The notes under the pieces are model-generated. The model did not search any database. It was not told the origin of the DNA and saw nothing but the letters and a program-made list of their open reading frames with translations. Positions 4,126 to 6,912 of a stretch of 49,362 nt of DNA are shown in pieces (the first letter of the stretch is position 1; each line of letters begins with the position of its first letter). The stretch is from an uncultured Bacilli bacterium. Its GTDB lineage: Bacteria > Bacillota_I > Bacilli_A > RF39 > UBA660. The position numbers and the translations under genes are program-made. The DNA lies in contig CALVQD010000041.1 in NCBI GenBank assembly GCA_944355255.1, positions 1 to 49,362 on the forward strand, given 5' to 3'.

Positions 4126-6204
4126 ATGAGAAAATTTCCATGTTATATACAAGAAGAAAAGAATGATTGTGGACCTGCCTGTATTAAAAGTATTTTAAGG
4201 TATTATAATGGCAATTATGATTATCAAAAATTAAAAGAAAAACTGTGTTTAAGTAGTCATGGTACAAGTGCTTATCATATGATTACTTTTCTAAATGAAC
4301 ATGGTTTTTATGCCGAAGGAAAACGATATGACTGGAAACATTGGATCGAAGGGAAATTTCTATTACCGAGTATTGTTCTTTTGAAAAATGAAGCATTAGA
4401 AAACCATTATGTAGTAATATACCGTATTTCATCAAAGAAAGAGAAAGTATGGATCGGAGATCCCAAAGAAGGAATTCGTATTTTATCGTGGAAACAATTT
4501 CAAAGTCAATTTACTGGAATTATGATTCATGTTGTACCAACAGGTATGATTGTAAAAGAGGAAAATCAAACTTTAAAGTACATTTTACGCACCTTTCTTT
4601 TACACCATAAGAAAACAATTGGTCTGGGAATTATACTTGTGGTAATATTTTTGCTTCTACAAGTTGGCACTTCATTAACCGCAAAATATTTTATCAATGG
4701 AGTATCTCTTCAAAGAGAACAATCTTATTTTTATGTTTTATTTTTCACCTTTTTACTATTACATTTATTTCGTACAAGTTATCAGTACTTCGTTCAAAAG
4801 TATTTATTTACTTTACAACTACAACTTCAACTTCTCCTAGATAGTTATTTGTATCAAACAATCTTAAAAGATCAAAGAGAAAGTGTTCTGCAAAGTCGTC
4901 CTTCCTTCTTTACCGAAAAAAGAGAAGAATTATATGTATGGATCTCCTCTGTATTTCAACTCATCCAATATCTTCTCTTTGATCTTGCACTCGCTTTTTT
5001 CTTGTTTTTATGTCTTTGTATGATACAGATAAATTTTGCTTTTTTTCTAGTTCCTTTTTTCATATTTACAATTGTTTATGATTTATGGATTGCGAAAAGA
5101 TTACAACCGGTCGAAAAACAAAGCCGGGAAGAGATGAATCACAGTCATATGTTCTTTTTAGAAAGTATGGAAAATCAATCTTTTTTAAAAACAGCTTCTT
5201 TAGAAACGAGTTTTATCAAGAAATATCGGAAGAAATTATTTCGTTTGAGTCAATATCTCCTTCATTATTTTCACCAACACAAATGGATGGAGTGTTTTTA
5301 TCAAATTATATTTTGCGTTTTCCATTTATACTTGTTTCTCTATTTTAGTATTATGGCAAACATGGACAAGATGACAATCGGTAATTTTGTTTTCTTTATT
5401 ACTGTATGGCAATCGCTTGTTCCAGTTTTACAGACAACTGCAAGGATGAGTGATGTTTGGATGAAAGTCAAGTTTTACTATGAACGATTGACACCATTTT
5501 TTTCCAAGGAAAAAACAACAACTGTATTCTCGGAATTTTCTTTTCATCAACTTTCCTGCCGACACTTCTCATATGATTATCACAATGGAAATGAAGTGTT
5601 GCAAAATATAGATATCAATATATATTCTGGAGAGAAAATTTTATTTACAGGAAACAGTGGAAGTGGGAAGAGTACTTTTTTAAAGTGTTTAAGTGGTCGT
5701 TTAACTATTGCTAGAAATCAAGTGTTTTTAAATCAGTTAGATCTCTGTGATTATCAAAAAGAACAGTTGCAATCGCGGATCGTTCTTTTAACACAAGAAG
5801 AACGTTTATTTCAGGGAACATTGTTTGAAAATATTACGCTTGGAAGAAAAGTATCAAAAGAAATGCTTGTAAGTATCTTACGGTGTACACGAGTTGATGA
5901 ATTGATCAAATCGCATCCATTAGGGTTTCAACAACCGATTATGAATCATGGTTATAATTTATCAGGTGGTGAAAGACAGCGTGTTGTATTAGCGCGATTA
6001 TTGCTCCAACCATTTGATGTTTTATTGATTGATGAAGGTTTTAGTGAAATGGATGTTTCTTTAGAAAGACAAATCATCAAAAATTTATTTTATACTTATT
6101 TTCAAAAAACAATCATTGTCATTTCTCATCGTTTGAATAACCGTGATTTATTCGGCCGTCATATCATTTTAAAAGATAAAAAAATAATAGAGGAAAAAGA
6201 GTGA
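4126..6204 (+). CDS. Bacteriocin/peptide ABC exporter with N-terminal C39 double-glycine peptidase domain
   Basis: C39 catalytic Cys context QEEKNDCGPACIKSIL with downstream His (ENHYVVIY) and Asp (IGDP). About six TM helices. NBD with Walker A GNSGSGKST, Q-loop LLTQEE, signature LSGGERQR, Walker B LLIDEGFSEMD and H-loop ISHR. Confidence 0.9.
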   Translation: MRKFPCYIQEEKNDCGPACIKSILRYYNGNYDYQKLKEKLCLSSHGTSAYHMITFLNEHGFYAEGKRYDWKHWIEGKFLLPSIVLLKNEALENHYVVIYRISSKKEKVWIGDPKEGIRILSWKQFQSQFTGIMIHVVPTGMIVKEENQTLKYILRTFLLHHKKTIGLGIILVVIFLLLQVGTSLTAKYFINGVSLQREQSYFYVLFFTFLLLHLFRTSYQYFVQKYLFTLQLQLQLLLDSYLYQTILKDQRESVLQSRPSFFTEKREELYVWISSVFQLIQYLLFDLALAFFLFLCLCMIQINFAFFLVPFFIFTIVYDLWIAKRLQPVEKQSREEMNHSHMFFLESMENQSFLKTASLETSFIKKYRKKLFRLSQYLLHYFHQHKWMECFYQIIFCVFHLYLFLYFSIMANMDKMTIGNFVFFITVWQSLVPVLQTTARMSDVWMKVKFYYERLTPFFSKEKTTTVFSEFSFHQLSCRHFSYDYHNGNEVLQNIDINIYSGEKILFTGNSGSGKSTFLKCLSGRLTIARNQVFLNQLDLCDYQKEQLQSRIVLLTQEERLFQGTLFENITLGRKVSKEMLVSILRCTRVDELIKSHPLGFQQPIMNHGYNLSGGERQRVVLARLLLQPFDVLLIDEGFSEMDVSLERQIIKNLFYTYFQKTIIVISHRLNNRDLFGRHIILKDKKIIEEKE

Positions 6205-6614
6205 AAGAGACGTGGGCAACAGAACAAACCTTAAATCGAAATGCCAATATATTATTAATAATAACAGGTATGCTCTTGTTATGTTTCGGTATCCTATTTT
6301 TATGGATTCCAACTACTAAGAAAAAGATGATTTATGGAATTGTCAGTCAGAAAAATCATATACAAACCTATTTATCAAAAACAGATCTAGATACGATTCA
6401 AGCATGGAATTGTGGAAATTCATTCTGTGAAGTTGTATCTATTAAAGAAGAAGTGATGCAGAAAGAAGATGGGCAAAATTATTATTTTGTAACATTAAAA
6501 GTGACTTTACCAAATGAGAAAAATAAGAAGGGTAATTATGTGTTATATGAGATCACAAAGAAGCAATCAAAGTACCACCAATGGCAAGAATGGATAAGGA
6601 GTGTGATGATGTGA
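6201..6614 (+). CDS. Single-pass membrane protein, candidate minimal export accessory or immunity protein
   Basis: GTG start overlaps the ABC stop (GTGA). It has one N-terminal TM helix (ILLIITGMLLLCFGILFLWI) and a beta-rich soluble part. No recognisable family by eye. Confidence 0.6.
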   Translation: MKETWATEQTLNRNANILLIITGMLLLCFGILFLWIPTTKKKMIYGIVSQKNHIQTYLSKTDLDTIQAWNCGNSFCEVVSIKEEVMQKEDGQNYYFVTLKVTLPNEKNKKGNYVLYEITKKQSKYHQWQEWIRSVMM

Positions 6615-6751
6615 AACAGTTAGAAACAGAAGAATTAAAACATGTTTATGGAGGTGAAATACACATAGGAATTATTTTAGGGATTGGTAGCATTGTCTCT
6701 TTTGTAATAGGGGTTATTGATGGGTTTGTTCATCCCAAGGTGTGTGAGTGA
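6611..6751 (+). CDS. Double-glycine leader peptide A (46 codons), candidate class II bacteriocin precursor
   Basis: Not in the ORF track because it is under 60 aa. An AAGGAG SD lies 9 nt upstream of GTG 6611. Translation is (M)KQLETEELKHVYGG / EIHIGIILGIGSIVSFVIGVIDGFVHPKVCE. The leader fits the GG consensus (L-12, E-8, L-7, V-4, GG). The mature part is hydrophobic with GxxxG motifs. Confidence 0.7.
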   Translation: MKQLETEELKHVYGGEIHIGIILGIGSIVSFVIGVIDGFVHPKVCE

Positions 6752-6912
6752 GATTATCAAAAGAAGAATTAAAACAGATTCATGGTGGAGACATCAGTGG
6801 TTCACTGGTGTCATCCATGGTACGTGGAATCACAATTCTCTTAGAATTGGGACGTAGTCTTGGGTCTTCAATTCGCAGAGTGATAGACGGAAATATTTGT
6901 TTTTACGAATAA
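6748..6912 (+). CDS. Double-glycine leader peptide B (54 codons), candidate class II bacteriocin precursor
   Basis: GTG 6748 is the first codon after an in-frame TGA and overlaps the peptide A stop (GTGA). An AAGGTG SD lies upstream. Translation is (M)RLSKEELKQIHGG / DISGSLVSSMVRGITILLELGRSLGSSIRRVIDGNICFYE. The leader matches LSxxELxxIxGG exactly. Confidence 0.75.
   Translation: MRLSKEELKQIHGGDISGSLVSSMVRGITILLELGRSLGSSIRRVIDGNICFYE

Follow-up and report, generated by a model that had tools for sequence, protein, structure and literature searches.

In a 49,362-nt stretch of DNA from an uncultured Bacilli bacterium (contig CALVQD010000041.1 of assembly GCA_944355255.1, positions 1 to 49,362 of the forward strand, hereafter called the window), two short adjacent genes, A and B, very probably encode real double-glycine (GG) leader peptides that are processed by the peptidase-containing ABC transporter (PCAT) encoded in the same gene run. 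We propose that the two peptides act together as a two-peptide bacteriocin resembling those of class IIb, a reading to which we assign a probability of around 0.6, with the antimicrobial activity itself being predicted from sequence and comparative data.

A and B close a run of four genes on the + strand, in which the junctions exporter/137-aa gene, 137-aa gene/A and A/B each consist of a 4-nt overlap (ATGA or GTGA), i.e. the classic layout from which translational coupling is predicted. A first-pass annotation of the window had reported both peptides as unlisted open reading frames (ORFs) downstream of a C39-ABC exporter and a 137-aa membrane protein. Re-reading of the sequence returned exactly the same coordinates and translations for the peptides, and the ORF listing and Pfam searches bore out their position. 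In L040, apparently from the window's own species (L numbers denote related loci), the gene caller called neither A nor B; the peptides probably went unlisted because both start with GTG in the window. The features of this cassette are:

4126..6204, + strand, PCAT exporter, 692 aa, with a C39 domain (aa 4-138), a divergent transmembrane (TM) domain and a nucleotide-binding domain (aa 492-638)
6201..6614, + strand, 137-aa accessory-like protein, here called ACC, with one predicted N-terminal TM helix
6596..6601, + strand, Shine-Dalgarno sequence AAGGAG of A, 9 nt before GTG 6611, read from the sequence
6611..6751, + strand, prepeptide A, 46 aa, GTG start at 6611, TGA stop at 6749-6751
6611-6655, + strand, leader of A, 15 aa, ending in VYGG, read from the sequence
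6656-6748, + strand, mature peptide A, 31 aa, hydrophobic, with GxxxG motifs and the tail IGVIDGFxxPKxC
6748..6912, + strand, prepeptide B, 54 aa, GTG start at 6748, TAA stop at 6910-6912
6748-6789, + strand, leader of B, 14 aa, ending in IHGG, read from the sequence
6790-6909, + strand, mature peptide B, 40 aa, amphipathic, core LLELGRSLGSSIRR, with a single Cys

Leaders, mature peptides and export proteins

With a hyphen separating leader and mature part, prepeptide A reads (M)KQLETEELKHVYGG-EIHIGIILGIGSIVSFVIGVIDGFVHPKVCE and prepeptide B reads (M)RLSKEELKQIHGG-DISGSLVSSMVRGITILLELGRSLGSSIRRVIDGNICFYE. The reading frame of A extends upstream to ATG 6581, which would yield a longer, 56-aa product; this start was rejected in favour of 6611. 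Since relatives keep a start codon (GTG, TTG or ATG) at the site equivalent to 6611, the leader of A is taken to comprise 15 aa. An alternative genetic code with TGA read as Trp was rejected, as the long ORFs are intact under table 11, TGA terminates 6 of 32 long ORFs, and 14 relatives have TAA or TAG as the stop codon of A. The earlier statement that each peptide has its own Shine-Dalgarno sequence is well founded for A (AAGGAG), while the one preceding B by 5 nt is weaker (AAGGTG); B therefore probably relies on translational coupling.

Both leaders carry hydrophobic residues at positions -4, -7 and -12, acidic residues at -8 and -9 and glycines at -2 and -1, which agrees with the proposal that they fit the consensus cleaved by C39 domains. 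A strict leader pattern, i.e. the double-glycine rule followed by 20-70 codons to the stop, was scanned in the six frames of the 49 kb and matched twice, at A and B only, with no match in 200 shuffles. Furthermore, the leader of A passes the bacteriocin_sig model TIGR01847 (16.7, cut-off 15.7), and that of B reaches 19.2 on NF047798, under the cut-off of 23.5.

Some variation exists at the predicted cleavage site, where AG, SG or GS replaces GG in 21 of 146 B representatives and where the A peptide of L019 (5867-6007) reads ...NIVAG followed by Y. A peculiar case is P0010, an ENA contig of 1634 bp with a 55-aa ORF that fuses an extended N-terminus and leader of A (...LETEELKQVYGGEIH) to the core of B (ITILLELGRSLGSS...C); it may be a natural hybrid formed by deletion between A and B, or a chimera of the assembly.

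The mature peptides of 31 and 40 aa had been described as hydrophobic or amphipathic with GxxxG motifs, and both the sequence and a moment calculation confirm this. Mature A is very hydrophobic (GRAVY 1.38) and contains the motif at G5-G9 and G19-G23; mature B has a hydrophobic moment of up to 0.70 across LLELGRSLGSSIRRVIDG and contains the motif at G22-G26, a glycine pair that is invariant across the family. In an AlphaFold2 (AF2) model of P0105, a gene call from a distant relative that spans both peptides in one read-through frame, each mature peptide is predicted to form one long helix (residues 13-39 and 65-98; pLDDT around 80 in the helices and 67 overall, with only the secondary structure being usable).

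The exporter contains the two domains that had been claimed for it (Peptidase_C39, PF03412, 95.2 bits, threshold 22; ABC_tran, PF00005, 88.1 bits, threshold 25) and aligns end to end with ComA of S. pneumoniae (PDB 8hf4-8hf7; 8hf7, E 8e-52) and PCAT1 of C. thermocellum (4ry2, E 6e-47). The catalytic tetrad is intact, with Q9/C15/H94/D112 of the exporter corresponding to Q11/C17/H96/D112 of ComA, and the Walker A (GNSGSGKST), signature (LSGGERQR) and Walker B (LLIDE) motifs can be read from the sequence. By its predicted domains, the protein is a PCAT, i.e. it has an N-terminal C39 domain with the Gln, Cys, His and Asp residues fused to an ABC exporter. In contrast to ComA and PCAT1, its transmembrane region is highly divergent (Pfam ABC_membrane 20.8 bits, threshold 28). 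The exporter remains under the cut-off of every NCBIfam bacteriocin-exporter model, its best NCBIfam match being NF045998, the Mbov_0121 family (251.8 bits, cut-off 500).

The second gene of the cassette encodes ACC, which may serve as an export accessory or in immunity. Most loci have a positional homologue of 134-154 aa, likewise with a TM helix predicted at the N-terminus, and L010, L019 and L032 lack one. Seven of 18 ACC homologues match NF045999, the MAG1140 family (cut-off 35; the best match, 26.8 bits, extends over the full length), to which the window's own ACC gave no match. Because the exporter and the ACC homologues match NF045998 and NF045999, respectively, with all scores below the cut-offs of 500 and 35, both proteins are probably distant relatives, and not members, of the mycoplasma pair Mbov_0121/MAG1140. 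The hosts of the cassette include metagenome-assembled genomes (MAGs) labelled as Mycoplasmatota, Tenericutes or Acholeplasmataceae-like. In the literature found, Mbov_0121 is mentioned only in two virulence-factor BLAST tables, which do not describe its function, and the distant link to the present cassette could give a first functional lead for these mycoplasma genes.

An AF2 model of ACC from a shallow alignment of nine sequences (pLDDT 61) consists of a TM helix and a beta-rich domain. Foldseek of this model against the PDB returned nothing significant, its ranks 2-4 being taken by the membrane fusion protein (MFP) 5xu0 with E values of 0.35-0.42; searching PDB sequences with a profile gave TM-helix noise only, and no Pfam family matched. 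The idea of ACC as a mini HlyD/MFP adaptor was thus set aside as unproven, having the non-significant 5xu0 hint and no backing from the sequence searches. In L007 (7457-7870, a metagenome assembly), two ORFs of 71 and 60 aa stand in place of the 137-aa gene, owing to a frameshift or a sequencing error, with A and B intact.

Conservation and family relationships of the peptides

Both ORFs, together with their leaders, are kept in related genomes, so that the lack of conservation which the first-pass annotation had named as a ground for refutation does not apply. Database searches found homologues of B down to 50 % identity and homologues of A at 87-96 % identity, and when 185,579 species genomes were scanned with a degenerate pattern, B relatives turned up in 17 species. 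These are without exception uncultured MAGs with a guanine + cytosine (GC) content of 25-34 %, labelled Bacilli, Tenericutes, Mycoplasmatota, Acholeplasmataceae or Clostridium sp. CAG:710, and in one case Muribaculaceae; going by their record titles, several originate from the human, mouse or rabbit gut, while the rest bear no such label. An A-type ORF directly precedes the B-type ORF in all 17 species and in further metagenome contigs, and wherever a locus reaches far enough upstream, a C39-ABC gene precedes the pair (host GC 23-34 %). Moreover, the exact ribosomal protein S21 of the window was found in 10 distinct contig contexts, all 10 of which contain the cassette.

The A family is characterized by GG, a Gly-rich hydrophobic helix and the tail (I/V)G(I/V)xDG(F/Y)xxPxKC, in which G, D, G, P and C are invariant or nearly so, and the B family by GG followed by xIS(G/A)xLIN...G...LL(E/D)LGRSLGSxIRR......C. 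A profile of B searched against 1.84 billion representative proteins retrieved 348 clusters (50 % identity) at E<1e-3, including 52 at E<1e-10, and none of those examined carries a name. Together with two real genes missed by the caller in the window's species, this family constitutes an annotation gap.

The ratio of non-synonymous to synonymous substitution rates (dN/dS) was determined for the window and L013, a close relative with a circular MAG of 1.26 Mb, at a saturated dS of >1. It is lowest for A (0.024), followed by B (0.087), the exporter (0.18) and ACC (0.23), with ranges over the comparisons of 0.024-0.044 for A and 0.087-0.096 for B. A and B are hence under strong purifying selection. 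When the window is compared with distant carriers, identity is 38-60 % for A and 47-61 % for B, as against 40-62 % for RsmD, YqeY and S21; the exporter is only 24-30 % identical to its positional orthologues, and ACC reaches at most 29 % or is unalignable. As far as these comparisons go, the conserved core of the cassette is the peptides, not the transporter.

Regarding known bacteriocin families, TIGR03949 (class IIb lactobin A/cerein 7B) is matched by 11 of 16 A-family members at E values of up to 1, and its cut-off of 21.5 is passed by the A peptides of L016 (23.9) and L022 (25.0). The best members of the A and B families reach E values of 8.8e-5 and 0.0084, respectively, on Bacteriocin_IIc (Pfam PF10439). 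A and B of the window itself stay below the Bacteriocin_IIc threshold.

Proposed function, self-protection and alternative explanations

Class IIb bacteriocins are encoded by adjacent genes in one operon, have GG leaders of 15-30 aa removed by a dedicated ABC transporter, are accompanied by an immunity gene in the operon and often by an accessory protein, contain GxxxG motifs (or AxxxA/SxxxS) in both peptides and require both peptides for activity; in the lactococcin G type, the peptides, the ABC transporter and the accessory protein are encoded in one operon (PMC2850506). The window resembles this type in its two adjacent prepeptides with GG leaders, the C39-ABC exporter and small accessory membrane protein in the same putative operon, the GxxxG motifs in both peptides and the predicted helical mature parts, so that at the level of sequence all the features of the class save the immunity gene are present. 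It differs in that the leaders, with 14-15 aa, are at or just below the short end of the range, no immunity gene is found, the mature peptides are neutral or anionic and have one conserved Cys each, the cassette occurs in every window-clade contig examined and occupies a conserved slot, and conservation is higher for the peptides than for the exporter. The sequence-level expectations of a two-peptide GG locus with a C39-ABC exporter, from the intact tetrad, the leaders, the coupled genes and the GxxxG motifs to conservation and purifying selection, were all borne out, which argues for the reading as a two-peptide bacteriocin resembling class IIb.

According to the model we favour, the cassette would be a translationally coupled export operon, probably co-transcribed with rsmD. 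The C39 domain would recognize the amphipathic leaders via the hydrophobic residues at -4, -7 and -12 and cleave after Gly15 of A and Gly14 of B, and the ABC domains would export A as a hydrophobic helix of 31 aa (3262 Da) and B as an amphipathic helix of 40 aa (4328 Da). Outside the cell, A and B may then act as one unit, with GxxxG-mediated helix-to-helix packing in the target membrane, and the most probable fate of their lone C-terminal Cys residues within this model would be to join, giving an A-B disulfide heterodimer of about 7588 Da. If active, this would be a compact four-gene system in uncultured small-genome gut bacteria of which the ecology is little known.

The disulfide part of the model deserves separate consideration. 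The first-pass annotation had pointed out a shared VIDG...C...E signature with one Cys in each peptide and considered a disulfide heterodimer conceivable. The signature is real in the window, but the VIDG of B is specific to the clade and only the single Cys is kept across the wider families. In the A family, one C-terminal Cys is invariant (16 of 16 sequences); in the B family, the number of Cys residues is exactly one in 126 of 146 representatives, and in 139 of 145 the Cys follows the core Gly at a distance of 16 residues. The near-invariance of one Cys in each family lends support to the heterodimer idea. As two co-exported peptides each keep a lone Cys, an A-B disulfide is the pairing we favour, at slightly less than even odds. 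We know of no class IIb example of a covalent heterodimer, and to our knowledge a disulfide-linked heterodimer, as the near-invariant Cys residues would predict here, is undescribed for unmodified two-peptide bacteriocins. A limited literature search on RF39 bacteriocins and on intermolecular disulfides in two-peptide bacteriocins returned nothing relevant, and a prior description is possible.

Self-protection can be addressed by comparison with the relatives, most lineages of which contain a further ORF, here called C, of 48-59 aa overlapping the end of B (e.g. L016 6048-6212, L017 6147-6323, L021 6147-6293, L022 3745-3921 and L029 7153-7302). ORF C is without a GG leader; its N-terminus is basic, it contains a single TM helix, and its last segment shares homology with the C-terminal half of B (hhalign probability 92 %, E 5.6e-7, 31 columns including the Cys); it gave no match to known families beyond leader-type matches. 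ORF C is probably a membrane-tethered decoy or immunity protein. In most relatives, it would probably confer immunity as a tethered decoy, i.e. through a TM anchor with the N-terminus inside and an outward copy of the C-terminal half of B. Going by these searches, the B peptide and the optional ORF C define unnamed families.

ORF C is absent in the window clade, L019, L024 and L044. By comparison with the other lineages, the window clade has lost it, and the candidates for self-protection in the window's host are the 137-aa protein, the exporter or the absence of a target. The statement that there is no dedicated immunity gene therefore holds for the window, but the relatives carry ORF C as a candidate. 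The clade without ORF C is the same in which ACC has a Cys pair, C71-G-x-x-x-C76 (aa 71-76), that is common to the window clade and absent in other ACC homologues.

Several observations count against a bacteriocin of this kind. The mature peptides are non-cationic, with a charge of -2 for A and about 0 for B, while most class II bacteriocins are cationic. Peptide A of the window scores 17.5 bits on TIGR03949, below the cut-off, A and B reach only 14.0 and 15.1 bits on Bacteriocin_IIc (threshold 27.1), and mature B resembles no known family beyond leader-type matches. No immunity ORF fits into the 100 nt between B and rpsU, and L019 has neither ACC nor C. All carriers are uncultured. As to the disulfide, an anaerobic, reducing gut would be a poor setting for its spontaneous formation, and no oxidoreductase is encoded in the locus. 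Finally, the peptides appear conserved like housekeeping proteins and more than their exporter, and the cassette is found in every window-clade context examined and in a fixed slot across divergent lineages, both of which seem atypical for bacteriocins and their loci. The long retention of the cassette could equally well be due to toxin-immunity addiction or to a conserved target.

Because of these atypical traits in conservation, slot, regulation, charge and immunity, a non-antibiotic role stays alive, unlikely as we consider it. A and B, with C where present, would form a small exported, disulfide-linked complex that resides in or on the producer membrane or acts like a cytolysin on host cells, with a lineage-wide physiological or host-related role, and the PCAT would do no more than mature and secrete them. 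This is where the constant presence of the cassette in the window clade, its position 5' of rpsU in nine or more lineages that differ in their upstream neighbours, the housekeeping-like conservation of the peptides much above that of the exporter and their very low dN/dS would fit well. It would also accommodate the missing immunity ORF in the window clade, L019, L024 and L044, the lack of an adjacent quorum regulator together with the probable co-transcription with rsmD, the non-cationic peptides, the resemblance of exporter and ACC to an uncharacterised mycoplasma pair (NF045998/NF045999) and the lack of plasmid or phage copies in tblastn searches with peptide B. However, both architecture and motifs correspond to class IIb, and some A members pass a class IIb hidden Markov model. 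ACC and C come and go, and the cassette is located elsewhere in L022, L024 and L029-31, which better fits an accessory trait; a selfish toxin-immunity addiction could also explain the retention, and we know of no precedent for a housekeeping role of PCAT-exported peptide pairs. The stable slot, the higher conservation of the peptides than of the exporter and the repeated loss of C point either to an unusually stable bacteriocin or to a non-antibiotic use of PCAT export.

One could speculate further, at a comparably low level of confidence, that A and B are an ancient, vertically inherited, Cys-Cys linked exported pair that is integral to a small-genome, host-associated, low-GC radiation of Bacilli and Mycoplasmatota-like bacteria. 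Its function might then lie, for example, in membrane physiology, in nutrient release from neighbours or host cells or in kin policing. The cassette would have been located beside rpsU since before these lineages split, and it would be related to the Mbov_0121/MAG1140 pair.

A modified product, i.e. a two-component lanthipeptide or an S-glycosylated or otherwise Cys-modified peptide with tailoring enzymes encoded elsewhere, seems improbable. Class II lanthipeptides likewise use GG/GA leaders and C39-ABC exporters, an invariant Cys is kept in both peptides and B is rich in Ser/Thr. In line with the first-pass annotation, an ORF and Pfam survey found no modification enzyme, immunity gene or two-component system adjoining the window cassette. 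Beyond the window, the annotated flanks of those related loci that were examined yielded neither a LanM-type synthetase nor a gene for a radical-SAM enzyme, a glycosyltransferase or any other tailoring enzyme, and the window flanks likewise contain no LanM-type synthetase. Furthermore, one Cys per peptide would allow one thioether ring at most, and the genome of the close relative L013 offers only 1.26 Mb.

Even less probable is a signalling role in place of an effector role, with A, B or both serving as secreted pheromones of the ComC, BlpC or plantaricin A type. Pheromones, too, are processed via GG leaders and ComA-like exporters, among solved structures ComA is the nearest homologue of the exporter, and there are weak matches to ComC- and EntF-family leaders; these matches, however, lie in or near the leader and far under the cut-offs. 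The annotated flanks of those related loci that were examined contained neither a histidine kinase nor a response regulator, A and B are always paired, and the mature parts, with their 31 and 40 aa, their hydrophobic or amphipathic character and their GxxxG motifs, do not resemble short cationic pheromones. That A and B are chance reading frames encoding nothing has a vanishingly small probability, since their shortness, GTG starts and omission by the gene finder in the window's species are outweighed by comparative data that refute it, i.e. dN/dS of 0.02-0.10 at saturating dS, identities still at 38-61 % in distant hosts, the 348 clusters homologous to B and the leader pattern in none of 200 shuffles.

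Transcription and genomic surroundings

Upstream and downstream of the cassette, the following features were identified:

3458..3487, + strand, best promoter-like site (TTGCTA-18-TATAAT, TG before the second hexamer), 5' of rsmD, from a consensus scan only
3511..4056, + strand, rsmD-type methyltransferase (Cons_hypoth95; Pfam PF03602, E 5e-53)
6954..6982, + strand, promoter-like site of rpsU (TTGAAA-17-TATAAT, TG before the second hexamer), from a consensus scan, 11/12 matches
7013..7216, + strand, rpsU, encoding ribosomal protein S21 (Pfam PF01165)

The site at 3458-3487 probably starts an rsmD-PCAT-ACC-A-B transcript with rsmD as the first gene of the operon. The consensus scan found no comparable promoter-like site in the 69-nt gap between rsmD and the exporter, and a scan of the window found no terminator either after rsmD or between B and rpsU. 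Considering that the scans found neither a promoter-like site before the exporter nor a terminator, and that no kinase or regulator is adjacent, the cassette is probably expressed constitutively together with rsmD, which adjoins the exporter on its 5' side at a distance of 27-70 nt in most relatives. The promoter-like site of rpsU starts 42 nt past the stop codon of B and marks the downstream boundary of the cassette; its hexamers TTGAAA/TATAAT are repeated 3' of the cassette in L044 and L046.

In contigs with close homologues the gene order is thrS-ylbD-ylbE-rsmD-[ABC-137aa-A-B]-rpsU-yqeY-...-rpsB-tsf. Across the lineages with the cassette immediately 5' of rpsU, in which both are co-oriented, the upstream neighbours include rsmD, a diacylglycerol kinase gene, relA/spoT and ORFs of unknown function; this adjacency is found in the window (4126-7216), L016-L021, L023, L025-L028, L032, L044 and L046. 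It is atypical for a bacteriocin. In L046 (6048-7259), an IS91/Y2-type transposase gene is located on the opposite strand about 400 nt 3' of rpsU; no other mobile-element gene was seen in the vicinity of a cassette copy.

Elsewhere in the 49-kb window, no tRNA genes were found. Two adjacent paralogous ORFs at 10803-11504 and 11519-12343, encoding 233 and 274 aa, share 28 % identity over 183 aa (E 8e-11) and have no assigned function; relatives have ORFs of similar size without a Pfam match at this position. The sole Rfam match above the gathering score in the window is a ribosomal protein L21 leader (RF00559, 53 bits) at 29430-29498.

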